Source: Bacteroidales bacterium (GTDB lineage: Bacteria; Bacteroidota; Bacteroidia; Bacteroidales; VadinHA17). Taken from it: a stretch of DNA of 64,000 nucleotides. Numbering within the stretch: position 1 is the first letter of the stretch; each line of letters begins with the position of its first letter. The notes under the pieces were generated by a model. That model made no database searches and was not told the origin of the DNA. It saw only the letters and a list, made by a program, of their open reading frames with translations. This document shows positions 7,705 through 64,000 of the stretch, one piece after another. The stretch lies in contig JARKQN010000078.1 of NCBI GenBank assembly GCA_029974835.1, positions 11,172 through 75,171 on the forward strand, written 5' to 3'. Made by a program: the position numbers and the translations under genes.

Positions 7705-7853
7705 TGCGAAAATGTTAATTTTTATAAAAAAAGGCATTAAAAGATTTCGGGTTCTGTTAATTAATTAACAAATCCGGACAGTTTTCAACAATCCTGATTA
7801 ATATGAATCGTCTAAAGATTAAGATTGAAGGCAGCGAAGCTGCAGAAAAAGTT

Positions 7854-10373
7854 TTAATAAACCATTATATATTTCTGAAGTACCGAATTGAGTTTCTCCC
7901 TGCTGAAAGGTTTCGAAATGTACTCATTGCATCCGGCCTCGATGGCTTTCTCCCTGTCTTCAGGAAATGCATAGGCCGTCTGGGCAATTACCGGCACGAG
8001 AGGGTTAATCTCGTGTATCTTCCTGGTGGCTACCAGTCCGTCCATTACCGGCATCTTAATATCCATCAGAACGATTCTTACATCCTGGTTCTTCTTAAAT
8101 AAGTCTATTGCCTCCTGTCCGTTTCTGGCACGCAGAATGCTGTATCCATAATTGCTGAGCAATGCCTCCAGAAAAAGATAATTGGACTCCTCATCCTCCG
8201 CAACTATGATTTTGACGCTTTTCATCTTCTTGATCTTCCCTTTCTCAGGTTCGGATGGAGAAGGATTACCGGCCGGCCTTGTATCTTTCACCGGGATGCT
8301 TACCACAAATGTGGAGCCTTTCCCGGGTTCGGAAAAAAGGGAGATTTCCCCGTCCATAAGAGTGACCCATGCTTTTGATATTGCAAGACCAAGCCCCGTT
8401 CCGCCATATTTTCTTGTCGCTGATTTGTCAACCTGGTAAAATCTTTCAAATATTTTTGAATGTTCACTTTCCGGGATTCCTATGCCTGAGTCCGATACTT
8501 CGATCTTTAATAAATTCTTATCGCGTATACACCTGAGTATTACAAAACCTGACCATGTGAATTTAAATGCATTGCTGAGAAGATTGTTGATTACCTGATA
8601 TAGTTTGGTTTCGTCAACAAGAATTGTCTCGTTGCATAGTGATTGATTTTCTTTCTTAAGAACAAACTCCAGTCCTTTCCGGTCGGCCTCGGGTTTATAT
8701 TGTTCATAAAGGCTTTCAATAAGCCTGCAGGGATTTGTATACGATTCGCGCAGCGATAACTGGCCTGTCTCTATTTGCGATATATTCAGAACATCCTCAA
8801 TTATTGAGAGCAGCTGATTATTACTCTGCAGAATTATGTCCATATAGTTTTTCCTTTCATCATCGTTGAGAGACTTGTTGTCGAGGAATGAGGAGAAACC
8901 CACAATTGCGTTTAGAGGAGTTCTTATTTCATGGGAGATATTTTGTAGAAATGCCGTTTTAAGCCTGTCGCTCTCCTCGGCTTTGTTTTTCTCATTTGTA
9001 AGCCTTTCAACCAGTAAGGCATTCTCGAGTGATAATGAGGCGATATTGGACAATGTCTGGCCGAGAGATATTTCAATCGGGGTAAATTTATGGAACACAC
9101 CTGTTGTGCCCAGGTTAAGAACACCACGAAGACTCCCGGGCGAGGAGAGGGGAAAGTAAATCAGGGATTTAATGTCCATCCTGTCCACTATTATCTTCTC
9201 CTGGGGCGTAAGCTGCTCCGAAGCTATATCTTCAGCAACAACCGGCTTGCCCGTTTCGATAGCTTTTCTGATGTGCAGGTGTTCTTTGATGTCAGCCACC
9301 CTGAATATTTCAGGATAATCATCCGGAAGCGGCGGAATTGTTGCTTCAAGATAGAGTTTTTCACCCGAAAGTGTATAGATTGCTCCGGCGTTGCCGTCGA
9401 TCAGATCAAGTGCGCCCTTAATGATTTTATTAAGGATTGTTTTTTTATCCAGAGATTCGAAAAGGCCGAGACTGATATTGAGCAACTGGTTTAATTCCTC
9501 GTTTCTTCTCTTGAGCTCAGCTTCAATTTTCTTTCTGTAAGTGATATCCTGAATAATCCCGAAGACGACTTTTTCTTCCGGTTTGTATTCAGCAACGGAA
9601 TAAATATCCAGGACTTCGCCTGTTGCCTGGTTTCTGATTTTGAACTCGATGTTATATGGCTTTATGCCTTTAATAAGGTTCTGTAGTTCCTCATCCAGGG
9701 CGGCGCGGTATTCGGGTAAAGGTATATCTTTTATATCCTCATATCTGAGCAGTTGGTTTGAAAGACCATAAAGTTTAATAGCCCCTTCAGAACCGTAAAT
9801 CATTCCGGTTCTGAGGTTAAGTTCCCAGTTTCCTGTGCCGGAAACAAGTTCAGCCCTTCTAAGCCTCATCTCGCTGTTCTTTACAGCCTCATCTGCCCTG
9901 ACTTTATCGGTTATATCCCTGATTGTCCCTGTTATACGGCGCGAATTAAGGTTAAGCCTGGCGCCAACCTCAAGATATTTGTTTTTGTACCGGACAATAA
10001 AAGGCTCAACATTCGTACCTTTTATAATAAGTTCCAGCAGAGGTCTTACAACTGAATTTTGTTTTTCATCAAGGAGGCGGGCAGCCAGCTCAAGAATACT
10101 TTTCTTCTCAATATCCTCTCTCTTTACATCAAGAATTTCAATAAGCGCATCATTGACGGATATTACTTTCCCTGTAAGGGATGTATAGGCAAGGCCGTCT
10201 GAAACAGTGTTGAAGATATCCCTGAAATCATTGCCGGCCCGGTTATAGTTTTCCTCTGCGATCCGTAGTTCGGCCAGCTCGCTTTCCAACTTTTTGATTC
10301 TTTCCTTAAGCTTCTGTATATCAGGAATATCAACTGCTTCTGCAGTTTTGTTTTTTTTCTTTTTTCCAAGCAT
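7854..10373 (-). CDS. Hybrid sensor histidine kinase/response regulator (coiled coil, PAS, GAF, HisKA, HATPase, REC)
   Basis: H-box FLQNISHEIRTPLNAI. ATPase G-box GGTGLGLAISKAW. C-terminal receiver KIIVAEDEESNYLF...RIVLMDIKMPVMDG. Confidence 0.9.
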   Translation of the reverse strand: MLGKKKKNKTAEAVDIPDIQKLKERIKKLESELAELRIAEENYNRAGNDFRDIFNTVSDGLAYTSLTGKVISVNDALIEILDVKREDIEKKSILELAARLLDEKQNSVVRPLLELIIKGTNVEPFIVRYKNKYLEVGARLNLNSRRITGTIRDITDKVRADEAVKNSEMRLRRAELVSGTGNWELNLRTGMIYGSEGAIKLYGLSNQLLRYEDIKDIPLPEYRAALDEELQNLIKGIKPYNIEFKIRNQATGEVLDIYSVAEYKPEEKVVFGIIQDITYRKKIEAELKRRNEELNQLLNISLGLFESLDKKTILNKIIKGALDLIDGNAGAIYTLSGEKLYLEATIPPLPDDYPEIFRVADIKEHLHIRKAIETGKPVVAEDIASEQLTPQEKIIVDRMDIKSLIYFPLSSPGSLRGVLNLGTTGVFHKFTPIEISLGQTLSNIASLSLENALLVERLTNEKNKAEESDRLKTAFLQNISHEIRTPLNAIVGFSSFLDNKSLNDDERKNYMDIILQSNNQLLSIIEDVLNISQIETGQLSLRESYTNPCRLIESLYEQYKPEADRKGLEFVLKKENQSLCNETILVDETKLYQVINNLLSNAFKFTWSGFVILRCIRDKNLLKIEVSDSGIGIPESEHSKIFERFYQVDKSATRKYGGTGLGLAISKAWVTLMDGEISLFSEPGKGSTFVVSIPVKDTRPAGNPSPSEPEKGKIKKMKSVKIIVAEDEESNYLFLEALLSNYGYSILRARNGQEAIDLFKKNQDVRIVLMDIKMPVMDGLVATRKIHEINPLVPVIAQTAYAFPEDREKAIEAGCNEYISKPFSREKLNSVLQKYIMVY

Positions 10374-49821: not shown

Positions 49822-50697
49822 ATGATACTATCAATGACCGGTTACGGCAAAGCCACAGGTGACCTTCCCGGCAAAAGGGTTATGGTCGAGGTAAAGACAA
49901 TCAATTCCAGGCAGAACGATCTCAATATCAAACTCCCGCAGGTACTCAGGGAGAAGGAGAGTGAAATACGGAACATGCTGAGCCAGAAGCTTGAAAGAGG
50001 GAGAATAGATCTCATTGTCACTTACGAAATACATAATATCCAAAGTCTTCCTGTTATAAACAAAGACGCTGTGAAAATCTATTATCAGCAGGTTAAGGCG
50101 CTTTCGGAGGAGCTTGGAATTAAGGTTTCCAAAAATATCCTGACGGCACTGCTGAGATTCCCCGACGCCATGCAGGTTGAGAAAGAGGAACTTGCAGAGG
50201 AGGACTGGACCAACGTCAGATACCTTATCGAAGAGGCTGTCGGAAAAGCAATCCAATACAGGATTGAGGAAGGCAAAGCCCTTGAAAAGGATATTGTGAA
50301 TTCGTTAACAAGAATACTCAGTGCACTGGAGGAAATAAGACGTTTTGAGCCCGGCCGCACTGAAAAGATAAGGGAAAAACTTACCCAGCTGCTTGAGACA
50401 ACAATTCAGGCAGATAAAATAGACAGAAACCGCCTTGAGCAGGAAATTATCTATTACCTCGAAAAATTTGACATCAACGAAGAAAAGGTAAGACTTAAGC
50501 AGCATTGCGACTATTTTCTCGAAAAGCTTAATGAGAAATCTTCAAACGGCAAGATGCTGGGTTTCATTTCCCAGGAAATAGGAAGGGAAATAAACACAAT
50601 CGGGTCAAAGGCCAATGATGCTGATATTCAGAAGATTGTTGTCGGAATGAAAGATGATCTGGAAAAGATCAAGGAGCAACTTCTTAATGTGCTCTGA
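49822..50697 (+). CDS. YicC family stress-induced protein
   Basis: MILSMTGYGKA at the N-terminus and EIGREINTIGSKAND near the C-terminus are typical of YicC. Confidence 0.85.
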   Translation: MILSMTGYGKATGDLPGKRVMVEVKTINSRQNDLNIKLPQVLREKESEIRNMLSQKLERGRIDLIVTYEIHNIQSLPVINKDAVKIYYQQVKALSEELGIKVSKNILTALLRFPDAMQVEKEELAEEDWTNVRYLIEEAVGKAIQYRIEEGKALEKDIVNSLTRILSALEEIRRFEPGRTEKIREKLTQLLETTIQADKIDRNRLEQEIIYYLEKFDINEEKVRLKQHCDYFLEKLNEKSSNGKMLGFISQEIGREINTIGSKANDADIQKIVVGMKDDLEKIKEQLLNVL

Positions 50698-51925: not shown

Positions 51926-52471
51926 CTAATTTAACCTCCTTATTATCTCCATGCCTCTTTTTAACGCCGCCTCATTTTCCGGAATGAGTTTATGGTGCCG
52001 TTCGGGCAGTGATTTTTTAAGTCCCTTAACCACATTTTCGATGCTTATAAGCGGTTTTATTTTAAGATATCCGCCGAGAACAATCATATTAAAAGTCTTC
52101 TGGCTCTTCATTCTTGAGGCTTCTTCTGCAGCATCGATCCTGTAAATTGTTATATCCTTTCTCACAGGGTGCCTTGTTATCCCGTTGCCGTCATAAATAA
52201 GAATGCCTCCGGGTTTAACGGAATTTTCAAACTTATCGAGCGACTGCTGGTTAAGGATGATTGCCGTGTCAAACCGTCTCAATATGGGAGAGCTGATTCT
52301 TTCGGAGCTTATAATTACCGTCACGTTGGCTGTTCCTCCCCTCATCTCAGGCCCGTAAGAAGGCATCCAGCTTACTTCCATATCCTGCATAAGGCCGGAA
52401 TATGCGATTATTTTTCCCATTGAGAGGACCCCCTGGCCGCCAAAACCTGCAATAATAATTTCTTCTGTCAT
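51926..52471 (-). CDS. 2-oxoacid:ferredoxin oxidoreductase, gamma subunit
   Basis: IIIAGFGGQGVLSMGKI is typical of the gamma subunit. It is the last gene of a delta-alpha-beta-gamma set. Confidence 0.88.
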   Translation of the reverse strand: MTEEIIIAGFGGQGVLSMGKIIAYSGLMQDMEVSWMPSYGPEMRGGTANVTVIISSERISSPILRRFDTAIILNQQSLDKFENSVKPGGILIYDGNGITRHPVRKDITIYRIDAAEEASRMKSQKTFNMIVLGGYLKIKPLISIENVVKGLKKSLPERHHKLIPENEAALKRGMEIIRRLN

Positions 52472-52485
52472 TGCAATGGTAATTT

Positions 52486-53298
52486 TTATTGTTCATTCTT
52501 ATTTTCAGCATCCGCGTCGCTTTCTGCCGGCACCTTAAGATCGCCCGGCTTATAGTAAGCGAACATATTCTCTTCCATCCACTTGTTTGATTCCACAGGT
52601 GTCATTTTCCATCCGGAAGGGCAGTTGGAGACAATTTCTATAAAGCACGTTCCCATGCCTTTTTTCTGGTAACCGACTGCTTTTTTTATTGCCTTTTTGG
52701 CCTTTCTCACCGCTGCCGGCGTATGGACACTCTGACGGGTAACGTAGCATGTTCCCGGGAGCATTGCAACCAGTTCGGTCATTTTAAGTGGGTTGCCCAT
52801 CATCTTAACATCCCTTCCGTAAGGCGATGTGGATGATTTCATTCCTTCGAGTGTTGTGGGAGCCATCTGACCGCCTGTCATGCCGTAAATACCGTTGTTA
52901 ATAAAGACAATAAGTATATTCTCGCCACGGTTGCATGCGTGAATTGTTTCGGAAGTACCGATAGCTGCCAGGTCGCCGTCGCCCTGGTATGTAAAAACGA
53001 ATTTTTCAGGCATCAGCCTTTTTATTGCCGTAGCCACCGCGGGGGCTCTTCCGTGTGCTGCCTGCTGGATATCGAGATCGAGGAAATCGTACATCAGTAC
53101 CGAACAGCCAACCGGGCATACGCCTATAGTATTTTCTGCCAGGTTTTCTTCCTCAATCACCTCTGCAATTATTCTGTGGGTGGTTCCGTGTCCGCAGCCG
53201 GGGCAGTACGAAAATGGCTTATCTGTAATCAGGGATGATTTCCTGTATACAAGGTTTTCCGGCTTAATTATATCTTTAAGTCCTTCAGCTGTTTTCAT
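52486..53298 (-). CDS. 2-oxoacid:ferredoxin oxidoreductase, beta (TPP-binding) subunit
   Basis: CPGCGHG and GDGDLAAIG motifs. Confidence 0.9.
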   Translation of the reverse strand: MKTAEGLKDIIKPENLVYRKSSLITDKPFSYCPGCGHGTTHRIIAEVIEEENLAENTIGVCPVGCSVLMYDFLDLDIQQAAHGRAPAVATAIKRLMPEKFVFTYQGDGDLAAIGTSETIHACNRGENILIVFINNGIYGMTGGQMAPTTLEGMKSSTSPYGRDVKMMGNPLKMTELVAMLPGTCYVTRQSVHTPAAVRKAKKAIKKAVGYQKKGMGTCFIEIVSNCPSGWKMTPVESNKWMEENMFAYYKPGDLKVPAESDADAENKNEQ

Positions 53299-53303
53299 GA
53301 TTT

Positions 53304-54365
53304 TCAGATTTTTGTTTTCAGGTATTCAAGAACCTCTTCCGGTTCGGTGATCACTCCCCCCATACGTCCGAAATGGTATACCGGAACCTGCCCGTTGACG
53401 GCGAGCTTAACATCTTCCACCATCTGACCCATGCTCATTTCAACGGAAACGATAATTTTCATGTGTGATGCAAGCGATCTGATCCTTTCATACGGGAACG
53501 GGTAAAGTGTGATGGGTCGCAGAAGGCCGGCCTTAATTCCTTCGGCCCGTGCCAGCTGAAGAGTTTTCTGGCAGACCCTTGCACTGGTGCCGTAAGCCAC
53601 CAGAAGGAATTCGGCATCATCAACCATAATCTCTTCGAACCTCACCTCATTTCGTTCAATTTCCCTGTATTTCTCCTGCAGTCTTAACAGGTGCTGTTCC
53701 TGGGCGTAAGGATCAAGGTCGAGTGAGGTAATAATATTTCTTTCCCTCTCTTTTGTTTTTCCGGTTGTTGCCCACGCCGGCACCTCGGTGCTTCTCTGTT
53801 TCTGGGGTTTCAGGTAAACCTTTTCCATCATCTGCCCGATGGCCCCGTCCGATAAAATCATTGCGGGGTTTCTGTATTTAAAGGCAAGATCGAAGGCCAG
53901 TTCCACAAAATCGGCCATTTCCTGTACCGAGGCCGGTGCAAGTACAATAAGGTGGTAATCGCCATGTCCCCCGCCCTTGACAGCCTGGAAATAATCAGAC
54001 TGTGCCGGTTGAATTGTTCCCAAACCCGGGCCGCCCCTCACAACGTTTACAATAAGGCACGGAAGCTGAGCTCCGGCGATATAAGAGATGCCTTCCTGTT
54101 TCAGGCTTATTCCGGGAGAAGAGGAAGAGGTCATCACTTTCTTTCCGCATCCGGCACCGCCGTATACCATATTTATGGCGGCAACCTCACTTTCTGCCTG
54201 AAGAACGACCATTCCTGTTCTTTCATGCGGATTGGCAGCCATGAGATATTCAAGAATTTCGCTCTGTGGAGTGATGGGATAACCGAAATAGGCATCGGCT
54301 CCGGCCCTTATTGCAGCTTCGGCAATGGCCTCATTGCCCTTCATCAACCGCATTTCTTTTTCCAT
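53304..54365 (-). CDS. 2-oxoacid:ferredoxin oxidoreductase, alpha subunit
   Basis: MKGNEAIAEAAIRAGADAYFGYPITPQSEI. Confidence 0.9.
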   Translation of the reverse strand: MEKEMRLMKGNEAIAEAAIRAGADAYFGYPITPQSEILEYLMAANPHERTGMVVLQAESEVAAINMVYGGAGCGKKVMTSSSSPGISLKQEGISYIAGAQLPCLIVNVVRGGPGLGTIQPAQSDYFQAVKGGGHGDYHLIVLAPASVQEMADFVELAFDLAFKYRNPAMILSDGAIGQMMEKVYLKPQKQRSTEVPAWATTGKTKERERNIITSLDLDPYAQEQHLLRLQEKYREIERNEVRFEEIMVDDAEFLLVAYGTSARVCQKTLQLARAEGIKAGLLRPITLYPFPYERIRSLASHMKIIVSVEMSMGQMVEDVKLAVNGQVPVYHFGRMGGVITEPEEVLEYLKTKI

Positions 54366-54371
54366 AGTGCT

Positions 54372-54596
54372 TCAGATTTTCATTCTATAAACTGTAATAA
54401 CACCATCGGGGCATACCGTTGCACAGTTTGTGCATCCGATACATAGTTCGGGATTGGCCGGGTAGGCATAATGGTATCCTTTCCCGTTAACCTCCGCAGC
54501 AAGCGCGATGGTTTTGGTGGGACATGTAACCACGCAAAGCTCGCATCCCTTGCATTTTTCAATATCTACTACAATACTTCCTTTTACTTTTGCCAT
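54372..54596 (-). CDS. 2-oxoacid:ferredoxin oxidoreductase, delta subunit (2x[4Fe-4S] ferredoxin)
   Basis: CKGCELCVVTCP and CIGCTNCATVCP. Confidence 0.88.
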   Translation of the reverse strand: MAKVKGSIVVDIEKCKGCELCVVTCPTKTIALAAEVNGKGYHYAYPANPELCIGCTNCATVCPDGVITVYRMKI

Positions 54597-54603
54597 ATCT
54601 GGT

Positions 54604-55944
54604 TCAGTTATTTACAGGATGATCTTTCGAAAATTTTTCAAGTCTTTCAATCAGGTCGGGAAACTGTTCCCGCTTAATTCTTGAGACGCATGCTCTCAGT
54701 CCTTCCGTGCGTTCGCTTCCCGTAATTATCAAAGATATTGCGCTGATGCCGTAGCACAGCAGTTCCCTGATCAGTTCTCCCGACGACATTCCCGGGTACG
54801 AGATTGTAAAATAGAATCCGTCAGCCAGCGGCTCATCGAGGTCCCTGTCATAGACAAGCCGGAAACCGTTCTTCAGGAATATTTCTTTCATAATGGCCGC
54901 TTTCTCTCCATACTCCTTAACATCCTCCCTGTAACGGTAGGTTCCGTCGTTTACTGCCTTAAGAAGCGCAGCCAGCCCATATTGTGCCGAGTGAGTCACA
55001 CCTGCCGACAATGCATAAAGGGCTCCGTAAATAAGTGCCTGCCCAAAACTGTCGGATGAATAATATCTCAGCAGGTCGGGATAGCGTCTGTTAAAAAGAT
55101 GGTCGGAAATAGCCATAAGCCCTATTCGCTGCCCGGCGTAGCTGAATATTTTTGAGCTTGAGAGGAGTATCACGTAATCCTTTGTGTAATGGGCTACACT
55201 CGGCTGGTACGGCGGCTCTCCCGGCACAGTGTAATCCTTGCGGAAATCCATCCCGAAATATGCAAGGTCCTCGATGACAATTACATCATGCTTGTCACAA
55301 AGCTCTCCGATTATTGACAATTCCTCCTCGGTAAAACATATCCACGACGGGTTATTCGGATTGGAAAAAAGAATTGACGATATTTTTCCTCCCGAAAGGC
55401 ATGACTCGAGTTTATCGCGAAGCTTTTTACCCCTGTAATTGTAAACATCGAAGGAATGGTAGTCATGGCCCAGCATTCTTACCTGTTGCTTCTGTACGGG
55501 GAAGCCCGGGTCGAGAAAAAGTGTGCCTTCCTTTGTTCTGTCGTTGCGGTTTGCTACAAGGAAACAGAGCATCCCGCCCATTAAAGACCCGACCGTGGGT
55601 ATACACCCCTTCGGGCTTATGTCAATATTAAGAAAAAGCTTAAAGAATCTTGAAGCCTCTTCTTTAAGGATTTTTAATCCTTCGATATTCGGATACACTG
55701 CACCCACACCCTTCTTCAGAGCTTCAATCTCGGCATCAATCCCGATCGTCGGAGGAGGAATGCCGGGCTCTCCGATTTCCATCCTGATAAACTTCACACC
55801 GGTTGCATATTCGATCTGGTTGACAAGCCTCACAATCTCCCTTATGCTTGCCGTCCCGGGATCTTTTATTCCACTCTCCTCCAGCTTGCGTTTTACCACT
55901 TCCGGATCAACGGGTGTTTTATTTATTTTAAAAGGTTGTGACAT
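54604..55944 (-). CDS. PLP-dependent aminotransferase (class I/II)
   Basis: SSSKIFSYAGQRIG (the SxSK...GxR PLP-lysine motif). 446 aa. Confidence 0.8.
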   Translation of the reverse strand: MSQPFKINKTPVDPEVVKRKLEESGIKDPGTASIREIVRLVNQIEYATGVKFIRMEIGEPGIPPPTIGIDAEIEALKKGVGAVYPNIEGLKILKEEASRFFKLFLNIDISPKGCIPTVGSLMGGMLCFLVANRNDRTKEGTLFLDPGFPVQKQQVRMLGHDYHSFDVYNYRGKKLRDKLESCLSGGKISSILFSNPNNPSWICFTEEELSIIGELCDKHDVIVIEDLAYFGMDFRKDYTVPGEPPYQPSVAHYTKDYVILLSSSKIFSYAGQRIGLMAISDHLFNRRYPDLLRYYSSDSFGQALIYGALYALSAGVTHSAQYGLAALLKAVNDGTYRYREDVKEYGEKAAIMKEIFLKNGFRLVYDRDLDEPLADGFYFTISYPGMSSGELIRELLCYGISAISLIITGSERTEGLRACVSRIKREQFPDLIERLEKFSKDHPVNN

Positions 55945-56068
55945 TTTCTCAGAAGCGAAGTTAAAAATAATAATTATTACCCTTCCAAAACCTGCTTAAT
56001 ATCAGTATTATAACCTGCCTATAACATTGATTATCAATTAAATGATAATCTAAAGCATTTTCAGCGCT

Positions 56069-58141
56069 TCAACTGTCCGGAATTCTTTTTTCAATCCGGA
56101 TTCTTGCGTCAACTGCAATAATTTCTTCGCCGTTTCCCATCAGTGGGTTAAGGTCAAGTTCTATTATTTCCGGTGCAGCTTCAATAAGTGCGGATAGCCG
56201 GCATATCAGCTCTGCAAATGATTTTTCGCTCACGCCGCCCTGCCCCCTGACTCCCTTTATTAAGCCATATCCTTTAAGGGAGCGTATCATATCGATGGCG
56301 GTATTTATTCCTACCGGTATAAGGGAAAATGAAAAATCCTTAAGAACCTCCACAAAAATACCCCCCAGGCCAGCCAGCAGGATGTGTCCGAATCCGGCTT
56401 CATACTTAACACCTGCAAAGAGTTCGGTTCCCGGGGTCATTTTCTGTATTAATACCTTTCTGCATTCTTTAATTGCCATTAGCCGGCGGAATGATTCCAG
56501 GGCTTTTTCATTGTCTGAAACATTAAGTACCACACCTCCGGCATCTGTTTTATGAAGAGGTCCGACCGCCTTCATGGCAACCGGAAATCCTACACTCTTT
56601 ATAGCTGATATTGTCTCCTTCTCACCGGCTGCATATAACGAAAGCGGTCTTTGTATTCCTGCCGCATCAAGAAGTATATCTGCATCCTCAGGTTCAAGGT
56701 ATCCGCCGGCAGCGGATTCAATTACAGATCTTATCAATTTATGATTAACTCTGAAGCCATTATCCGTACCGGTTTCCGGCTGAGGTGCATTCAGGACTGC
56801 CGAAAGGGCTTTGCCGAATATTGCCTCATCTGTGAAGTAAATATTTCCTTTTGCCGCAAATTCATCCATCTCCTTCCCGGCATTGATAAGTGAAGGCAGA
56901 ATTGCATAGACAGGTTTACGGCAGATTCTCATTTTCTCATGAAGAACTTTATAGACATTTTTCACGGAAAAGAGTCCAGGGCTGCCGAAGATAACGGCTA
57001 TTGAATCAATGTTACTGAAGTCATTGTCACAGGCATCAAGTATAAGTCCGAGTTGTTCTGCGGTGCCTGTAGCCAGGAAATCCACCGGGTTTGCAACCGA
57101 AGAGCCCGGGTGGAGTTTCTCCTTCAGCCGTTCAGCTGCAGGGCCTGTAATATGCGGCACCTCAATGCCGTTCTTCGAGAGAACATCCGTAAGTATTACT
57201 GCGGGTCCTCCTGCATGGGTAACTATTCCGACCCTCCTGCCTGCAGGTTTCCTGTGAAGGAATACCGAAGCGACTGCAACCAGTTCCGAACGGCTGTGAC
57301 ATCTGATAATTCCGGCCTTTCTGAACAGGGCGTCGTAAGCCATATCCGGACTAGCCATTGCCCCTGTGTGTGATGAAGCGGCCCTTATGCCGGCCTCAGA
57401 CACCCCTGCTTTAAGGGCGGCTATCCTGCATCCTTTGGCTATCAGTGAAGCAGAGTGTTTAAGGAGTTTTCCGGGGTTACGGATGCTTTCGATGTAAAGC
57501 AGTTTGACGCCGGCACTGCTTCCGGGCGTGTAGGAATCGTCAAGATATTCAAGCACGTCCTCGATGCCTGTCTGGGCACTGTTGCCCACAGACCATACCG
57601 CGGAGAAAGGCACACCGTTTGTAACGGCAGCCTCCATTATGAATACCGCCGTTGCACCTGATCCGGAGATAAGCTCTACGCCGTCGGGTCTAAGTACCGG
57701 CAGGGGTGTTGTAAAAACCCCCGCATAATTCATGTTCAGAAACCCTATGCAGTTCGGACCAATCAGGGTCCCCCCTGCCGAACTGATGACCGAAGCAATT
57801 TTCTGTTCAGCCTCACGACCTTCTCCGCTCTCCTCGCCAAAGCCGGCCGAAAGAATTATGAATGCCCCGGTCTTTTTCTGCTCCGCGAGCACCGTAACGG
57901 CCTGCAGGCACATCTTCGCCGGTATGGCAAGAATGGCAAGATCGCAGGGCGGAAGAAGAGAGACATCAGGATAAGATTTAATACCTTGTATAACCTGTGC
58001 TTTGGGGTTTACAACATAGAGATGCCCCTTGTATCCTCCCGAAATGAGATTATACAATACTTTGCCTCCGGTTTTGGATATATCTTCGGATCCTCCTACC
58101 ACGGCAATGCTGCCGGGATTTAACAGTTTTTCATTGATCAT
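56069..58141 (-). CDS. ADP-forming acetyl/acyl-CoA synthetase (fused CoA-binding, ligase and ATP-grasp domains)
   Basis: N-terminal CoA-binding segment LLNPGSIAVVGGSED. Phosphohistidine loop ASSHTGAMAS. C-terminal ATP-grasp half. 690 aa. Confidence 0.82.
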   Translation of the reverse strand: MINEKLLNPGSIAVVGGSEDISKTGGKVLYNLISGGYKGHLYVVNPKAQVIQGIKSYPDVSLLPPCDLAILAIPAKMCLQAVTVLAEQKKTGAFIILSAGFGEESGEGREAEQKIASVISSAGGTLIGPNCIGFLNMNYAGVFTTPLPVLRPDGVELISGSGATAVFIMEAAVTNGVPFSAVWSVGNSAQTGIEDVLEYLDDSYTPGSSAGVKLLYIESIRNPGKLLKHSASLIAKGCRIAALKAGVSEAGIRAASSHTGAMASPDMAYDALFRKAGIIRCHSRSELVAVASVFLHRKPAGRRVGIVTHAGGPAVILTDVLSKNGIEVPHITGPAAERLKEKLHPGSSVANPVDFLATGTAEQLGLILDACDNDFSNIDSIAVIFGSPGLFSVKNVYKVLHEKMRICRKPVYAILPSLINAGKEMDEFAAKGNIYFTDEAIFGKALSAVLNAPQPETGTDNGFRVNHKLIRSVIESAAGGYLEPEDADILLDAAGIQRPLSLYAAGEKETISAIKSVGFPVAMKAVGPLHKTDAGGVVLNVSDNEKALESFRRLMAIKECRKVLIQKMTPGTELFAGVKYEAGFGHILLAGLGGIFVEVLKDFSFSLIPVGINTAIDMIRSLKGYGLIKGVRGQGGVSEKSFAELICRLSALIEAAPEIIELDLNPLMGNGEEIIAVDARIRIEKRIPDS

Positions 58142-58332
58142 TGCAAAAAATGCTAAGAAAAAGACAATAAAACTCCTGGAAAAGGTACCGGATTACGTCT
58201 TCTATAAACCGGCAAACCGTTTCAGAAACCCGACATTCAGGGCAATATTATAAAGGTATTGCTGAGAAATATATTCAGGACACATAAATCCTACCGAAAA
58301 GTCTTCGAAAATTATAAAAATTATTTTCAATC

Positions 58333-59253
58333 TCAGTATATAAGTTCGCTTACCTCTTCAATAGCTTTTTTGACAGTCGTGCTGAAATATCTTTGATCGT
58401 AGAGGTTAAGGGTTTCGGAAAGCCGTTTATGGAAGTAAAGAATAATCTTTTTGCCCCTGTAGTCGTTACCGGTGCCGGGAGTATGAAAATATACTCCGTT
58501 CTCTCCGTCTGTGTTCTCGCCTATCAGCACTATACATTTATGCCGTGAGTTATCTGAGGAAACGGAAGCGGCATAGATGCCTCCAGGTGGAATCAGCTTG
58601 TCCGGTTCGATCTTCCCGGCGGAAAAGAAATTATAATCACTGACCGGCAGGTTGCGGGCCTCTTCCGGAAAACACATTATCATATAATGATTATCGAGGT
58701 AGGCATTTGCCCGCTGAATATATCCGTCGCTGATTGCTTTCCTGATCCTGGTGGAGCTGACTGTTTCATGCTCCACTTCCCTGGCAGGAATCTCTTCTGC
58801 TTCAAATCCGTAGATATCCTTCAGATTCCAGAGGTAGTTATAATCTCCCTGTCTGTTGCAGCCGAAATGATGATTGAATCCGACCACAATAACTCTGGCC
58901 CCGATAACAGAGACCAGGTAATCCCTTACAAACTCCTCGCAGGTGATCCTTGAGAATTCTCTAGTAAATTCAGCGATTATGACATTATCTACACCGGCTT
59001 TTTCAAGCAGCAGCATTTTTTCGTCCGTTGTATTTATCAGCCTGAGGCTTTTGCCTGCAGATTCAGGGTAAAGCACCTTCCGCGGGTGAGGATGAAAAGT
59101 GATCAGTACTGTTTCACCGTTATACAGCGAGGCAAGGTTACGCAGACGGTTGATAATTGCTTTGTGCCCCACGTGCACGCCATCGAACGAACCGGTAGTG
59201 ACAACAGGATTTCTGAATTGCTTTAACGCTCCAAAGCCTCTGAAGATATCCAT
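58333..59253 (-). CDS. ribF: Bifunctional riboflavin kinase / FMN adenylyltransferase
   Basis: VVTTGSFDGVHVGHKAII and SSTRIRKAI motifs. Confidence 0.9.
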   Translation of the reverse strand: MDIFRGFGALKQFRNPVVTTGSFDGVHVGHKAIINRLRNLASLYNGETVLITFHPHPRKVLYPESAGKSLRLINTTDEKMLLLEKAGVDNVIIAEFTREFSRITCEEFVRDYLVSVIGARVIVVGFNHHFGCNRQGDYNYLWNLKDIYGFEAEEIPAREVEHETVSSTRIRKAISDGYIQRANAYLDNHYMIMCFPEEARNLPVSDYNFFSAGKIEPDKLIPPGGIYAASVSSDNSRHKCIVLIGENTDGENGVYFHTPGTGNDYRGKKIILYFHKRLSETLNLYDQRYFSTTVKKAIEEVSELIY

Positions 59254-59263
59254 CCCCGGTTTG

Positions 59264-59890
59264 TTATCTGATGCTTTCCTTTACAAAATAGGCCACTTTT
59301 TCGATTGAAGTCACCATGTCATATTCTTCGAGATAGACCGTCGGCGGTACATTCAGTGACACAGTTGTGAAGTTGAGTACACCTTTAACGCCGAAACGGA
59401 CGGCATCATCGCAGGTGCTCCTGGCGTAATCGGGAGGGACGGTAAGGATAATTATTGAGATATTGAGCTCTTTTATCATGTTTTCCATCTCCCTTACATC
59501 ATAGCACCTTACACCGGAAATAACTTTTCCGGTTTTCTGCTGATCATTATCGAAGGAAGCAACCAGATTAAGCTTGGATCTTTTCCCTCTGAAATATGAA
59601 GAAACGGCACGTCCGAGGTTTCCCATGCCGATGATCGCGACATTCAGCGGTGTCTCGGAATCGATTACCCTGCCAATAGTTTCCACGAGCACCCTGATAT
59701 CATAACCTTTTCTAATTCCGCTCGAGTATCCGATAAGCATTAAGTCGCGACGCACCTGTACTGCTGTAATGTGCAGCAATGAGGCCAGTTCATGTGAATA
59801 AATGTAATTCTTTCCCTGAGAAATAAGTGTAAGCAGGACTCTCCTGTATTCACTCAGCCTTTCGACAGTTTTTCCGGGAAGTTTTTTCAT
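59264..59890 (-). CDS. rex: Redox-sensing transcriptional repressor Rex
   Basis: I prefer the start MKKLPGKTVERLSEYRRVLL (Met24 of the tracked ORF). Winged-helix segment AVQVRRDLMLIGY. Rossmann segment VAIIGMGNLGRAV. Confidence 0.88.
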   Translation of the reverse strand: MKKLPGKTVERLSEYRRVLLTLISQGKNYIYSHELASLLHITAVQVRRDLMLIGYSSGIRKGYDIRVLVETIGRVIDSETPLNVAIIGMGNLGRAVSSYFRGKRSKLNLVASFDNDQQKTGKVISGVRCYDVREMENMIKELNISIIILTVPPDYARSTCDDAVRFGVKGVLNFTTVSLNVPPTVYLEEYDMVTSIEKVAYFVKESIR

Positions 59891-59900
59891 AATTGATGTT

Positions 59901-61025
59901 TTATTGATTAAGTGGTAACCTGACCGTAAAAATAGAACCTTTTTCCGGTATACTTTCAACTGATATTGTTCCTTTGTAAAGGTCGACTACTTTTTTTACA
60001 ATGGACAAGCCGAGTCCGCTGCCGGTTATATTTTTTGTTTCATCGCGTTTTATTCTTACGAATTCGGTAAAGAGGGATTCCATATCTTCAGGTCTGATGC
60101 CTATTCCGGTGTCGGAGAATATCACGACAGCCTCACCCGGGCTTTTGTCGATTGTTATTTCCACCTTACCTTCCCTGCGGTTATACTTTACGGCATTCGA
60201 TATCAGGTTATTAAAGATTATGGCGATATCTTCCGGGTCGGCCATTATTACGGCTTCGGCTTTTTTAATCACCTCTATCTGCACCTCCATCTGGATTGCA
60301 TAAGGCTGTATTGTTGCCACGGAATCGGACACGGCAGAAGCCAGGTTAACCGGTTGCAGTTTCTCTTCACGTTTCTCGAGTCTTATCTTCGTAAAATCAA
60401 GCAGGTCCATGATCAGGTTTCTCATTCCCTGGATTCTCTGCAGCGATCTGTCGATGGGTACCGCATAATCGTCAATTTTTTCGCCGTACTGTCTTTCCTG
60501 CATCATCCTCAGGTATCCTTCAATGGCGTTTAATGGCGCCTTGAGCTCATGTGAGAGTACTGAAAGAAACTGGTATCTTACTTTTTTACCCTCCTCGTTG
60601 AGCCTGTGAGTTATTCTTTTCAGATAGAGTTGCTTGGTTATATTCTCAATGCTCGATTTCAGTTCCTGAGGGGTAAATGGTTTGGGAATGAAATCGGAGG
60701 CTCCGTTCCGGGTCGCCCTGACAGCCACGTCGAGTGAAGCATATGAGGTTATCATAGCCACAACCATGTCGTGATTTTTCTTTCTGATATTATCCAGTAC
60801 ATCCACGCCCTGCATTCCCGGCAGTTTATTGTCGAGAAGAACGATATCGGGTTTGTTTTTTTCGATAATCTCAAGAGCCTCCTCTCCCGTGGGTGCTTCA
60901 AGGATTTCGAAAGAAAAATCCTCATCCATAAAAGGATAGGTCACGGAAAAATTTCCCAGGATTCTGGCCACGCCCGATCTTATTCCTGGTTCATCATCAA
61001 CCACAAGAACCTTAAGAATACCCAT
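59901..61025 (-). CDS. Response-regulator receiver fused to a histidine kinase (REC-HisKA-HATPase)
   Basis: REC segment KVLVVDDEPGIR...IVLLDNKLPGMQG. H-box LSVLSHELKAPLNAI. G-box GSGLGLSIVKKVV. Confidence 0.9.
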   Translation of the reverse strand: MGILKVLVVDDEPGIRSGVARILGNFSVTYPFMDEDFSFEILEAPTGEEALEIIEKNKPDIVLLDNKLPGMQGVDVLDNIRKKNHDMVVAMITSYASLDVAVRATRNGASDFIPKPFTPQELKSSIENITKQLYLKRITHRLNEEGKKVRYQFLSVLSHELKAPLNAIEGYLRMMQERQYGEKIDDYAVPIDRSLQRIQGMRNLIMDLLDFTKIRLEKREEKLQPVNLASAVSDSVATIQPYAIQMEVQIEVIKKAEAVIMADPEDIAIIFNNLISNAVKYNRREGKVEITIDKSPGEAVVIFSDTGIGIRPEDMESLFTEFVRIKRDETKNITGSGLGLSIVKKVVDLYKGTISVESIPEKGSIFTVRLPLNQ

Positions 61026-61026
61026 T

Positions 61027-61431
61027 TCAGCGATTTAAGAGTTTGATTATTTCCTGATCAAGCTGTTCCGGTCTCACTCCTTTTTCAAGGTATGAATCTG
61101 CCCTTATCCAATCTTTTTCGGTACGGCTGTCGGTACTGAATGATATACCGGTTTCGCGGGCAACTGCGGTGGGTATTATAACAGGCACGTCAGGATACTT
61201 TTTCTTCATCTTATAACATAGAATAAATCCGCTGTCGTCATTCTCCATCATCAGGTCGAATACAGCGACATCAGGTTTCTGGCCTGCTATATAGGCTTCA
61301 GCCTCAGCCTGGCTGCTTACGCCGGCAACTCTGTAACCCGCCTTTTCGAGCCCTGCTATAGTCTGGAAGAGGTAATCGGGATCATCATCCGCAACAAGCA
61401 CTGTATATTTTTTCCTGTCCATAATCTGCAA
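61027..61431 (-). CDS. Stand-alone response-regulator receiver domain protein
   Basis: TVLVADDDPD...VAVFDLMM. There is no output domain. Its stop codon lies 1 nt from the start of the next gene. Confidence 0.85.
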   Translation of the reverse strand: MQIMDRKKYTVLVADDDPDYLFQTIAGLEKAGYRVAGVSSQAEAEAYIAGQKPDVAVFDLMMENDDSGFILCYKMKKKYPDVPVIIPTAVARETGISFSTDSRTEKDWIRADSYLEKGVRPEQLDQEIIKLLNR

Positions 61432-61465
61432 ATATCAAATATTTAATAAAACAACAATAGTCAGT

Positions 61466-63421
61466 TTACTCTTTTTTCCTTGGCAGCACAATACGGAAAC
61501 TTGTTCCTGTAGGACCTTTCGATGGATCGTCATTTGATTCAACCGTAATCTGGCCCTTATGCATTTTAACAATGCCATAGGCTGTTGCTAGGCCCAGCCC
61601 GGTACCATGGCCTATACCCTTGGTTGTAAAGAACGGTTCAAAGATTTTGGATCTGTTCTCCTCCTTAATGCCTGTACCTGTGTCTTTCACCTCAATTATA
61701 ATATCCCCCGGAGTATCTTTCATCGTCAGTGTAACAGTACCTCCCTGCGGCATGGCATCGATGGCATTCTTGATGAGATTTGATATTACCTGGGTCATCT
61801 GTTCGTGATCGAGCATTGCCTGGGGACTTGTAAGATTACAGACTATTTCGGTTTTAACATTTTCTGGAACAATAACACTTTCCAGGCTGTGCCCTACAAG
61901 CTCTTTCACGTTCACCTCCTGGTGGTTTACCTGGTTTTTACGTGCAAAATTAAGTAGTCCCCCCACAATTTTCTTGCAGCGGCCGGCCTGTTCGGCTATC
62001 AGTTTGAGGTCTTCTCTCATGGGATCATCCGGCCGGCATTCATCAAGAAGTATGTTACTGTACATTATCACCACCCCAAGGGGGTTATTCAGTTCATGGG
62101 CAATGCCTGCCGAAAGCTGTCCCATATGAGCCAGTTTCTCGGATTGTCTGAGGGCCTGTTTCATGGTACTGAGTTTCTCGTTCGACACTTCGAGCTGCCG
62201 TACCATATTATGAAGATTCTCTATGGTCCATGGAAGGCACATTTCCGACTCGGCCAGTCCTTTCTTAATGGCTATTGCGTGTTCCACGCAGGTTTCGTAG
62301 CCGCAGGCGCCGCAATTAAGATGATCCTTGATGGTATGCTTGCCCATTGCTGCCAGAATATCTGTTACGTCTTCGTCGGTATTTATGATTCTCTGGTCGG
62401 CCGGGGAATAACGCACAGAGAGGTCGAGTGATGAAAATTCGTCCATGTTTTTTTCCCACTCAAGGAGGTTCATGTTCCACATCTTTTCGCGTGCATAGGA
62501 ACTTACCAGGTTTCGCCTGTTATATTGTTTCCCGTTCCTTGAGAGTCCCGGTCCCATTATACAGCCTTCGCAGCAAAGCAGCTCCATATGGGAATTCTTC
62601 AGTAGTCCTGCCTCATACTCCTTAAGGGCATTCTGAAAATCTATTCTTCCTTCGGCTGCAATTATATTGCCCGTTATTGCATCATCGTTAATACCGGCCG
62701 TCTGCATCAAACCTCTTGTAACAGGGAATATTGCACCTCTTCCTCCCTTGGGGGGATCAAAATCGGACGGGGTACTATTTTCAGGCCTGATACCACTTCT
62801 CTGAAACAGGTCTCTCAGTTCCAGAAAAGTTATTGCCTCATCTATTTCCTGGCTTTCAGCCTTTTTGGCAATGCAGGGTCCGATGAAAACTATTTTCAGA
62901 TTATCTCCGTATTTTTTCCGCATTACCCTTGAAGTTGCAACCATTGGAGAGACTACAGGGGCGAGATGGTCGACAAGATCCGGATGATAAAACCTTACGT
63001 AATTAACTATGGAAGGACAGTCGGATGAGATGTAATACCTGTCTCCCGACATGAGGCTTCCGAAGCGGTGAGCGACAAGGTCGGCCCCGAAAGAGACCTC
63101 TGCCACAAGGCTGAACCCCAGACTCCTTACCATGCCCACAAAAACCCTGTAATCAGTAATCTCCTGAAACTCAGCCGGAAAGCTGGGTGCAATGATTGCA
63201 GCGGTTCTTTCACCCGATTCAATAAGGTTAATAACCCTGCCGGTAGTATCGAGGAAGACCTTTGCACCCTGGCTGCAAACCTTTGTGCAGTTTCCGCAGG
63301 CGATACACCTGTCGGCAATGACTTCCGCCTGACCTCCGACAATCCGTATTGCCTTGGCCGGGCATTCCCTCACACATGTATAACAGGTGCGGCAGAGTTC
63401 TTTAATGGTATATACAAGCAT
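61466..63421 (-). CDS. [FeFe]-hydrogenase-like sensor domain (HydS-type) fused to a histidine kinase
   Basis: N-terminal 2x[4Fe-4S] motifs (CRTCYTCVRECP, CIACGNCTKVC). H-domain motifs SSDCP (aa 132-136), GPCIAKKAE (aa 181-189) and LLCCEGCIMGPG (aa 281-292). Cx2Cx4Cx16C at aa 370-395. A coiled linker follows, then H-box AGIAHELNNPL and GHGTGLGLATAYG. Confidence 0.8.
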   Translation of the reverse strand: MLVYTIKELCRTCYTCVRECPAKAIRIVGGQAEVIADRCIACGNCTKVCSQGAKVFLDTTGRVINLIESGERTAAIIAPSFPAEFQEITDYRVFVGMVRSLGFSLVAEVSFGADLVAHRFGSLMSGDRYYISSDCPSIVNYVRFYHPDLVDHLAPVVSPMVATSRVMRKKYGDNLKIVFIGPCIAKKAESQEIDEAITFLELRDLFQRSGIRPENSTPSDFDPPKGGRGAIFPVTRGLMQTAGINDDAITGNIIAAEGRIDFQNALKEYEAGLLKNSHMELLCCEGCIMGPGLSRNGKQYNRRNLVSSYAREKMWNMNLLEWEKNMDEFSSLDLSVRYSPADQRIINTDEDVTDILAAMGKHTIKDHLNCGACGYETCVEHAIAIKKGLAESEMCLPWTIENLHNMVRQLEVSNEKLSTMKQALRQSEKLAHMGQLSAGIAHELNNPLGVVIMYSNILLDECRPDDPMREDLKLIAEQAGRCKKIVGGLLNFARKNQVNHQEVNVKELVGHSLESVIVPENVKTEIVCNLTSPQAMLDHEQMTQVISNLIKNAIDAMPQGGTVTLTMKDTPGDIIIEVKDTGTGIKEENRSKIFEPFFTTKGIGHGTGLGLATAYGIVKMHKGQITVESNDDPSKGPTGTSFRIVLPRKKE

Positions 63422-63438
63422 TCTCTATACTTTTTTTA

Positions 63439-64000
63439 TCAGAGTAGCACATCCCTTTTCACGAATGAAGTGTGAAGCAGTTTGCCGGCAGGGTTTTTCG
63501 CATTTTGTTTCACCTCTTTCAGGTAGAAATTAAATATTGCCGGTGATGCGGACGGCATCTGGACAGGGTCTGTTTCTTCGTTCTGGTAAGCCAGCCTGGC
63601 CCTGTTTCTGATTTCCTCCTTCGATGCCGGGGCGGGCATGCCTCCTCCGTTTACACACCCTCCCGGGCATACCATTACCTCGACCAGGTCATATTGCTTT
63701 CCTGAAGAGATTTGTTCTTTGAGCTTTGCAAAACCTGCCAGGCCGTCAACGACGGCAACTCTAATTTTTCTGCCCTGAATTTCAGGTTCAGCTTCACGGA
63801 ACGAAGATGTTCCTCTGAGGCTTTTAAAAGGTTTTCTGCCCGGGTCATTCCCTGAAAGCTTCAGTGAAGTGTAGCGCATTACGGCTTCAGCGAGACCTCC
63901 TGAGACTTCCGCAATAACCGCTGCAGAACTTTTCAGTGAGGCAGGTTCGTCAGCCTGCTCCCCTTCGGTTTCAACAGCATCGATGCCGTAAAGCTTTATC
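63439..64000 (-). CDS. hydA: [FeFe]-hydrogenase catalytic subunit, C-terminal part (5' end lies beyond the right edge)
   Basis: The canonical L3 motif VEVMVCPGGCVNGGGMP is present. My own translation upstream of the tracked Met stays open to nt 64000: ...KLYGIDAVETEGEQADEPASLKSSAAVIAEVSGGLAEAVMRYT. This parallels the clostridial HydA GGVMEAALR region. Confidence 0.8.
   Translation of the reverse strand, partial: IKLYGIDAVETEGEQADEPASLKSSAAVIAEVSGGLAEAVMRYTSLKLSGNDPGRKPFKSLRGTSSFREAEPEIQGRKIRVAVVDGLAGFAKLKEQISSGKQYDLVEVMVCPGGCVNGGGMPAPASKEEIRNRARLAYQNEETDPVQMPSASPAIFNFYLKEVKQNAKNPAGKLLHTSFVKRDVLL

Follow-up and report, generated by a model that had tools for sequence, protein, structure and literature searches.

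A putative sensory [FeFe]-hydrogenase fused to a histidine kinase in a conserved, probably Rex-controlled HydABC locus of Bacteroidales

We analysed a stretch of 64,000 nucleotides (nt), here called the window, from a Bacteroidales bacterium of the lineage VadinHA17 (contig JARKQN010000078.1 of assembly GCA_029974835.1, positions 11,172 to 75,171 of the forward strand). At its end lies a run of minus-strand genes that starts with the 3' part of hydA and encodes a putative sensory [FeFe]-hydrogenase fused to a histidine kinase (HydS-HK), a stand-alone receiver (REC), a kinase with its own receiver domain (REC-HK) and the repressor Rex. The original prediction had treated these five genes as one unit in which a phosphorelay lacking a DNA-binding response regulator might let H2 and NADH sensing converge on hydrogenase expression. 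Listing of open reading frames (ORFs), Pfam and NCBIfam confirmed the places, names and spacing of the five genes, and a sixth follows them:

63439..64000, minus strand: 3' end of hydA (186 codons), H-cluster subunit of a HydABC-type [FeFe]-hydrogenase; the frame continues off the window.
61466..63421, minus strand: HydS-HK, a putative sensory [FeFe]-hydrogenase fused to a histidine kinase, 651 amino acids (aa; Pfam).
61027..61422, minus strand: stand-alone REC, a single-domain response regulator, 131 aa from the conserved ATG (Pfam Response_reg 6e-15).
59901..61025, minus strand: REC-HK, of the build REC-HisKA-HATPase_c, 374 aa (Pfam).
59264..59890, minus strand: rex, an NADH/NAD+-sensing repressor, 208 aa from the ATG (NCBIfam, Pfam, solved structures).
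58333..59253, minus strand: ribF-like FAD synthetase with a weak flavokinase domain, final gene of the conserved block (Pfam FAD_syn 2.5e-44, Flavokinase 5e-4).

Consecutive genes from hydA to rex are separated by 17, 34, 1 and 10 nt. The second gap measures 43 nt when counted to the conserved ATG of REC; the REC frame also opens at a TTG at 61431, and the ATG at 61422 is the start that is kept in relatives and chosen by gene callers. A further 10 nt on the same strand separate rex from the ribF-like gene, so the block continues past rex. The hydA fragment matched Pfam Fe_hyd_lg_C (3.3e-17), followed by a weak small-subunit-like tail, and the NCBIfam model FeFe_hydrog_A6 (1.8e-36, model positions 388-571). 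Scanning 55900..64000, we found no terminator-like hairpin on the minus strand in any gap of the five-gene block. A combined scan of the same region for sigma-70 promoters and terminators returned fewer sites than shuffled sequences did and is uninformative for a Bacteroidetes genome. hydG was not found in the window by tblastn.

To place these proteins, relatives were collected with one genome per species. At least 593 species had confirmed relatives, and the species counts below derive from the best 80, all of them metagenome-assembled genomes of Bacteroidales or Rikenellaceae with HydS-HK identities of 64-78%. HydS-HK comprises, in this order, two [4Fe-4S] motifs, an H-cluster domain, a Cx2Cx4Cx16C Fe-S motif, HisKA and HATPase_c (Pfam: Fe_hyd_lg_C 5e-41, Fer4_10 9e-8, FeS PF04060 3e-7, HisKA 1e-13, HATPase_c 4e-26). 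Residues 4-53 match Fer4_10, Fer4 and Fer4_9 and hold CxxCxxCxxxC twice, invariant in 38 relatives. Alignment with HydA of the same locus assigned the H-cluster cysteines to Cys135, Cys183, Cys284 and Cys287, which are kept in 80 species. In the numbering of CpI, Lys358 is retained, and positions 299, 353 and 497 have Asp, Gly and Leu in place of Cys, Met and Met (alignment with HydA and motif search, 80 species). The motifs SSDCPS, GPCxAKKAE, ELLCCEGC, Cx2Cx4Cx16C and HELNNP are likewise kept in 80 species; in the window protein the C-terminal Cx2Cx4Cx16C reads CGACGYETCVEHAIAIKKGLAESEMC, and it is kept in the relatives examined. Pfam detected no PAS domain in HydS-HK, in which HisKA begins 38 residues past the last cysteine. 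The kinase core resembles ZraS (9JFJ, 2e-33), and the 2Fe-2S/NuoG-like N-terminus that wires HydA to HydB and HydC is absent.

Putative sensory enzymes of groups M2e and M2f have lost Cys299, carry replacements of Met353 and Met497 and end in a C-terminal Cx2Cx4Cx16C (PMC8163306). By its sequence, HydS-HK has the hallmarks of a putative sensory [FeFe]-hydrogenase of group C/D, save for the PAS domain. With HydS of HydDB group C/M2f and group D/M2e (HydS of Thermotoga maritima, Thermoanaerobacter mathranii and Ruminococcus albus, and HfsB of Thermoanaerobacterium) it shares the two N-terminal [4Fe-4S] motifs, the four H-domain cysteines, the lost proton-relay cysteine, the replaced Met353 and Met497, the Cx2Cx4Cx16C motif and an adjoining trimeric hydABC. 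It differs from them in that the Fe-S motif leads straight into HisKA-HATPase with no PAS between, and in having Asp rather than Ala at position 299. A PAS domain behind the Fe-S motif belonged to the first definition of M2f (group C); here the kinase stands in its place, as in the class "C1 histidine-kinase-linked (putative)" that HydDB already catalogues (PMC5037454). Kinase-domain fusions adjoining group A3 genes have been mentioned for Hydrogenedentota (PMC11406978). The literature searched contained no experimental study of kinase-fused sensory [FeFe]-hydrogenases. Because its N-terminal part is a HydS-type H-cluster domain, a reason absent from the original prediction, the kinase is a candidate H2 sensor; such a role would be well founded in the architecture of the protein.

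The exact HydS-HK protein is also present on Logan contigs. Contigs outside the window that carry the same or related loci are given L-numbers here. Since the contigs L003-L006 are about 99.6% identical to the window over a shared 5.4 kb, we assign them to the same species. On L001 and L003, hydC (161 aa) and hydB (644 aa) stand ahead of the full hydA (572 aa; L003:8265-9983), and in L003-L006 these three genes lie immediately before HydS-HK. The L003 proteins matched 2Fe-2S_thioredx (HydC, 6e-44), Complex1_51K (2.5e-41) and NADH_4Fe-4S (HydB), and Fer2_4, NADH-G_4Fe-4S_3 and Fe_hyd_lg_C (HydA, 7e-68 for the last), with HydA1 of Thermoanaerobacter kivui as the best solved match of HydA (8A6T, 6e-132). 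The three-subunit build of an electron-bifurcating HydABC (group A3) is present by sequence, with a NuoE-like and a NuoF-like subunit and a HydA that has the 2Fe-2S/NuoG-like N-terminus. The hydA promoter does lie outside the window, as had been stated, but the relevant promoter is that of hydC, given that hydB and hydC stand upstream of hydA.

Across a 296-bp spacer from hydC, a divergent operon (L003:2196-5537) encodes an 86-aa [2Fe-2S] thioredoxin-like protein, HydS2 and a PP2C phosphatase. HydS2 is a second HydS-type protein of 628 aa with TANCPV and Cx2Cx4Cx16C, whose C-terminal 200 aa have no Pfam match; the PP2C (SpoIIE) phosphatase ends in 165 aa with no assigned domain. The predicted five-gene run is thus real, but the unit is larger, reaching from hydC to ribF, and is accompanied by a divergent second sensor operon. 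This operon (2Fe-2S protein, HydS2 without a Pfam PAS, PP2C) resembles the type known from the hydS/Ser-Thr kinase-phosphatase/rex genes of R. albus and from hfsABCD of Thermoanaerobacterium, where a sensory hydrogenase, phosphorylation enzymes and Rex have been proposed to act jointly on hydrogenase and fermentation genes. The branch in the window differs from that type in using His-Asp rather than Ser/Thr signalling, and here both branches flank the same hydCBA. Two different H2-sensor branches would flank hydCBA throughout much of the group, given that the divergent operon is kept in 52/56 species.

HydA of this clade is atypical at its active site. Its motifs SACPAW, TPCxAMKFE, EVMxCPGGC..G[GA]G and GGGMP compare with the canonical TSCCPxW, MPCxxKxxE and ExMxCxxGCxxGGGQP. 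In all species checked, Cys299 is replaced by Ala, Met353 by Thr/Ser and Lys358 by Met, and the alignment with 8A6T agrees. Lys358 forms a hydrogen bond with one cyanide ligand of the H-cluster. The clade HydA is missing three residues that nearly all catalytic [FeFe]-hydrogenases have, and it also scores under the NCBIfam group A cut-offs (586.8 versus 765, and 351.7 versus 405.95). The status of the clade HydABC as a normal hydrogenase is in doubt because of Ala299, Met358, Thr/Ser353 and these sub-cut-off scores. The kinase-fused protein, with its Asp299 and Lys358, may have the more competent H-cluster pocket, HydA being the atypical one of the two. An atypical HydA active site, if real, bears on what the widespread "HydABC" does.

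These residues also bear on whether HydS-HK is a dedicated H2 sensor. It could instead report electron flux or the redox state of ferredoxin or HydABC through its Fe-S chain, or it could be a working hydrogenase module that is read by the kinase, with HydA as its atypical partner. C299D variants of CpI and HydA1 keep 30-80% of H2-release activity, C299A abolishes activity in CpI, and HydS of T. maritima has Ala at this position (PMC6226526); Asp, in contrast to that Ala, sustains proton transfer in CpI. Both the Asp299 and Lys358 of HydS-HK and the Ala299, Met358, Thr/Ser353 and low scores of HydA speak for such an arrangement. Against it, HydS-HK shows the HydS hallmarks (replaced Met353 and Met497, Cx2Cx4Cx16C, adjoining hydABC) and is without the 2Fe-2S/NuoG-like N-terminus that links HydA to HydB and HydC. 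HydA, in turn, retains the four cluster cysteines; with a one-residue shift of the alignment it probably also has Glu279 and an acidic side chain at 282. We consider a role other than dedicated H2 sensing unlikely, though it deserves to be kept in mind.

We then asked how widely this layout is shared, using as denominators the species-representative genomes with enough flank. In the common order, the PP2C, HydS2 and 2Fe-2S genes point away from a rightward series of hydC, hydB, hydA, HydS-HK, REC, REC-HK, rex and ribF. HydS-HK is followed by REC, REC-HK, rex and ribF in 61/63 species and preceded by hydC, hydB and hydA in 62/65. The spacing between neighbours across species was as follows:

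hydA to HydS-HK: median 18 nt.
HydS-HK to REC: median 81 nt, and >100 nt in 33/76.
REC to REC-HK: 1 nt in 60/72.
REC-HK to rex: median 6 nt, with a 4-nt overlap in 20/70.
rex to ribF: median 14 nt, never >100.

The gene arrangement is far beyond chance. The co-occurrence that the original prediction had proposed to look for therefore exists, and it includes ribF as well; the refuting condition named there, an arrangement kept in no relative, clearly does not apply. Its remark that the unit encodes no DNA-binding response regulator also held: among the conserved cluster genes of about 60 species there is none, other ORFs of the flanks being unclassified.

Rex is an ordinary member of its family. 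It matched the NCBIfam subfamily NF003995 (1.1e-55; 188 bits versus a cut-off of 126) and is composed of Put_DNA-bind_N (PF06971, 4e-14) and a CoA_binding Rossmann domain (PF02629, 3e-17). The best solved relative is Rex of Bacillus subtilis (2VT2, 1.6e-31); the solved structures 2VT2, 5ZZ5, 3WG9, 3KEO and 1XCB matched at 1e-31 to 4e-25, with full-length matches to 2VT2, 5ZZ5 and 3WG9 (1e-31 to 1e-28). Across 70 species, the recognition-helix stretch VQVRRDLMLIGY and most of the nucleotide-binding GMGNLGRA are kept. The published Rex consensus is TTGTGAANNNNTTCACAA (PMC6391272, PMC5317091), and TTGTTAA-type sites have been predicted before hfsABCD, hydG, ech and adhE in Thermoanaerobacterium (PMC5886521). 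The literature searched held nothing specific on Rex operators in Bacteroidales or on this gene module.

Sequence upstream of hydA and hydC was scanned for Rex operators, a check that the original prediction had called for, and a double box was found. In the same-species contigs and in 63/69 related species, two adjacent 18-bp Rex-type boxes, TTGTTAATAAAATAACAA and aTGTTTATTTATTAACAA, lie 8-10 nt upstream of the -7 box of hydC. In L003 the boxes, which share one base, read TTGTTAATAAAATAACAG and GTGTTTATAAAATAACAA; they lie 37 nt upstream of the ATG of hydC, with TATCTTTG after them. The resulting 35-nt element, present in 63/69 species, is conserved at 1.61 bits per position versus 0.30-0.35 in its flanks, and TGTT...AACA is invariant in both boxes. 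TAnnTTTG begins 43-45 nt past the start of the element in 60/63 species; it is reportedly the Bacteroidetes -7 promoter box, a consensus ascribed to Bayley et al. 2000. One species has the canonical Rex box TTGTGAAAATATTCACAA at box 1, with the changes symmetric in both half-sites. The proposal that NADH sensing bears on hydrogenase expression thus gained sequence support in the form of a conserved double Rex-type operator on the hydC promoter. Very probably, Rex represses hydCBA and the genes downstream, rex included, from this double operator, which overlaps the -33 region.

Rex regulons that contain hydrogenase genes are known from Clostridia, Thermoanaerobacterales, Caldicellulosiruptor and Thermotogales, and Caldithrix abyssi has a rex-hydABC operon. 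The locus resembles these in its standard Rex, in having rex within the same, probably autoregulated operon, and in carrying 18-bp repeats of the TTGTGAA/TTGTTAA-N4-TTCACAA/TTAACAA class on a hydrogenase promoter. It differs in belonging to Bacteroidota, with boxes paired with a TAnnTTTG promoter, in the two abutting boxes that share one base and have centres 17 bp apart, and in the distal position of rex, behind two kinases and a receiver.

For a wider view, a position matrix was built from the hydC boxes and applied to 1.45 Mb of related loci with a threshold of at least 14 bits. There were 172 matches. About 170 of them fall at one of three places, namely upstream of hydC, at the beginning of the divergent operon and upstream of REC, and one is in a mapped coding region. 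The box before REC, a strong one (ATGTTAATAAAATAACAA type), stands 58-61 nt upstream of the REC start in 20/76 species (e.g. L002, L011, L013, L023, L024, L033, L034 and L037); the window species has either lost it or never had it. Near the divergent [2Fe-2S] gene, a weaker Rex-like box (CTGTTTATAAATAAACAA type; L003:5542-5559) occurs in 27/61 species, mostly 6-8 nt from the start codon. Rex may also control this second sensor operon. Some relatives (L073, L045, L030) have direct repeats upstream of hydC: in L073 a unit of about 45 nt, ACTTTAACCGCTACGCGGTATGAAATGACTGATAACTTTGACCT, is repeated 133 nt before hydC, and L045 has a GCCAACTGCC-type repeat. The L073 sequence showed no Rex element up to 160 nt from the hydC start.

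The exact 17-mer TGTTAATAAAATAACAA was also met beside hydABC, hydS and rex of distant metagenome lineages (17 of the first 120 matches). Such neighbours on L089, L107, L117, L125, L146, L160 and L192 encode HydABC that are 31-47% identical, and in one case the 17-mer lies 14 nt before a rex that is 55% identical. Because it adjoins such diverged hydABC and rex genes, the same operator sequence appears to be used across distant lineages. At the other 17-mer sites, 36/104 fall inside ORFs; a few have Rex-typical genes downstream (Fe-ADH, POR, class-V aminotransferase) and most have unrelated ones, so that this remainder is largely noise.

The original prediction had reported no Rex boxes between the genes of the block. 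There is indeed none in 59264..64000, but the search had used the wrong spacer in the wrong place: its N6 was dropped here in favour of the N4 of the published consensus (TTGTGAA-N4-TTCACAA), and the boxes exist on the hydC promoter outside the window. A consensus scan of the window with up to 3 mismatches gave 6 matches, which is not above chance. The operator matrix, run on the whole window, returned only positions 7754 and 50294, with none in 55900..64000 and none before the acetyl-CoA synthetase or aminotransferase genes. The site at 50294-50311 (TTGTGAATTCGTTAACAA), the best of the consensus matches, is one mismatch from the Rex consensus and was rejected as probably due to chance, lying inside a YicC-like coding sequence (49822..50697). 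The site at 7754-7771 (CTGTTAATTAATTAACAA) scored 24.2 bits, where 0.1 matches of at least 12 bits are expected per shuffled window. It is intergenic, 17 nt before two DUF4402 genes and a chaperone-like gene and just downstream of a PAS-GAF hybrid kinase (7854..10373).

Co-transcription of the block, proposed from its short gaps, is plausible in the window, where the gaps are short, no terminator-like site was found and no box precedes REC, but it does not hold generally for the clade. The 43-nt gap before REC in the window lacks a Rex box, the best score being 1.9 bits, and an exact TAnnTTTG -7 box as well. For the window species, the simplest and a plausible reading is that transcription from the hydC promoter runs on through REC to ribF. 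Where a box precedes REC, as in 20 species, the REC, REC-HK, rex and ribF genes probably form a Rex-autoregulated unit of their own.

Conservation of this kind might reflect inherited synteny without shared function, with Rex controlling hydCBA and the two kinases and the receiver regulating something unrelated. All 80 loci come from one order, Bacteroidales, so that common descent adds to the conservation, and the gap between HydS-HK and REC is variable. Yet the flanks beyond ribF and beyond the divergent operon vary between species while the core is kept, and the non-coding DNA around the operators is unconserved, which argues that these genomes diverged enough for rearrangement. Moreover, one kinase is physically fused to a hydrogenase-type sensor domain, and Rex boxes stand at a fixed distance before REC in 20 species. 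We regard mere inheritance of the gene order as very improbable.

What the signalling proteins pass on, and to which partner, was addressed through their domains. As the original prediction had said, none of the three contains an output domain in Pfam. They have no Hpt family match either, and no Hpt gene is found among the conserved block genes. REC has the acidic pocket DDD, the phospho-acceptor Asp59 in FDLMM and the Lys, all kept in 73 sequences, and Pfam shows no second domain. REC-HK is made up of Response_reg (2e-26, residues 6-126), HisKA (2e-12, 150-215) and HATPase_c (4e-28, 263-373) with no other sensor domain in Pfam; its Asp65, Thr/Ser, Lys114, H-box His158 and N/G boxes are kept in 70 sequences. 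The catalytic residues of both kinases and both receivers are thus conserved. The two kinase cores are 29% identical. Covariation gave no signal for kinase-receiver pairing, the DHp helices of both kinases being nearly invariant.

The multi-step phosphorelay that had been envisaged is not borne out: with no Hpt, this is not a classical His-Asp-His-Asp chain and looks instead like a kinase followed by a receiver-controlled kinase of the LvrB type. In the Leptospira Lvr system (LvrA to LvrB to LvrC), an upstream kinase phosphorylates the LvrB receiver, which releases the catalytic domains, and LvrB goes on to phosphorylate a regulator whose gene lies elsewhere (PMC13269768). REC-HK has the same REC-DHp-CA build (374 versus 377-382 aa), keeps the Asp and the His and has another kinase upstream. 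The similarity is generic and at the level of domains, LvrB not being among the best matches listed; hybrid_RR_LvrB-like was among the NCBIfam architectures matched by the sister kinase. In contrast to Lvr, the upstream kinase here is cytoplasmic with a metallocluster sensor, and a stand-alone REC is co-translated. By analogy, we infer a wiring in which HydS-HK would act on the REC-HK receiver, and REC-HK on REC and/or an unlinked regulator.

Alternatively, Rex itself could be the output of the kinase pathway. Phosphorylated REC or REC-HK would bind or modify Rex at the double operator, and H2 and NADH/NAD+ would be integrated at one promoter. This would explain the lack of a DNA-binding regulator among the conserved cluster genes of about 60 species. 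REC, REC-HK and rex are nearly fused (the 1-nt gap, and the 4-nt overlap of REC-HK and rex in 20/70), as is typical of partners made in fixed proportion, and they form their own Rex-boxed unit in 20/76 species. Tight gene spacing, however, speaks of co-expression and not of contact. Rex has the usual length and domain set and carries neither a receiver nor another added module, the searches made gave no precedent for a receiver acting on Rex, and LvrB, the sole characterised receiver-controlled kinase, signals to a regulator encoded elsewhere. We therefore think it improbable that the pathway ends on Rex; if true, it would be a two-component pathway ending in a transcription factor without a receiver domain.

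Taken as one reading, a Rex-repressed hydCBA-hydS/HK-REC-REC/HK-rex-ribF operon with NADH control, H2 or redox sensing and LvrB-like wiring has, in our judgement, slightly better than an even chance of being right. In a first step, Rex on the two adjacent 18-bp operators would repress the whole unit, itself included, at low NADH/NAD+; high NADH would free the operators of Rex, and the NADH-linked hydrogenase would be made. In a second step, HydS-HK would act as the sensor of H2 (or of H2 and redox state), the state of its H-cluster reaching the kinase core by way of the C-terminal [4Fe-4S] motif and then a short linker helix, and setting autophosphorylation with no PAS between. In a third step, the phosphoryl group would pass to the receiver of REC-HK and switch on the kinase of that protein, as in LvrB; the targets of REC-HK would be the stand-alone REC, co-translated with it, and/or an unlinked regulator. 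NADH control through Rex is well supported by the conserved operators. The sensing step would follow from the domain architecture and the known HydS proteins, and the third step is suggested by gene order and one characterised analogue. That the kinase branch acts on hydrogenase expression is our conjecture.

Several points weigh against this reading. The operators lie outside the window and were read from same-species contigs, not from this exact genome, and they are assigned to Rex by site similarity and co-location, so that another regulator with a similar palindrome may use them. The junction between HydS-HK and REC is the loosest of the block (median 81 nt, >100 nt in 33/76) and carries the Rex box in 20/76 species, because of which one long transcript is not general for the clade. 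An AlphaFold2 model of HydS-HK, built with 38 close relatives, has low confidence (predicted local distance difference test, pLDDT, 63.9; predicted template modelling score, pTM, 0.47) and does not fix the geometry of the linker; Foldseek with this low-confidence model retrieved kinase cores and CpI. Asp299 supports activity in CpI and HydA1, so HydS-HK may turn over H2 better than T. maritima HydS does. Finally, the two receivers are 22% identical, which gives no kinase-receiver pairing.

The same logic, a low-turnover hydrogenase that reports H2 to a histidine kinase governing hydrogenase genes, is known from the [NiFe] regulatory hydrogenases of the HoxJ/HoxA (Ralstonia eutropha) and HupUV/HupT/HupR systems (PMC5707799). 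The metal site and the protein family are unrelated to those of HydS-HK, however, and in those systems the sensor and the kinase are separate and PAS-linked, with a DNA-binding HoxA that has no counterpart encoded here. Kinase-fused sensory hydrogenases and Rex control of hydrogenases are each known kinds, and the combination found here differs in layout.

The surroundings of the block yielded some further observations. The ribF-like gene scores under every NCBIfam RibF cut-off and often overlaps rex in relatives; HydB binds FMN, and a dedicated flavin-cofactor role for this gene is conceivable. Starting 191 nt past it on the same strand (window 51926-58141) are genes for an ADP-forming acyl-CoA synthetase, an aminotransferase, a small 4Fe-4S protein and a three-subunit 2-oxoacid:ferredoxin oxidoreductase. 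Together they make up an amino-acid fermentation module that would feed reduced ferredoxin to the hydrogenase. The acyl-CoA synthetase comes after ribF in about a third of the related species.

The HydS-HK family, with thousands of protein matches, is very common in anaerobic Bacteroidales of fens, sediments, digesters and guts. The characterised HydS proteins of T. maritima and T. mathranii have no demonstrated output (PMC8163306), and the natural fusion of sensor and kinase offers a one-protein handle on how sensory [FeFe]-hydrogenases pass on their signal. The double Rex operator provides a concrete model for how NADH load would set H2 production in these fermenters; in habitats of this kind, the H2 that primary fermenters give off controls syntrophy and methanogenesis.

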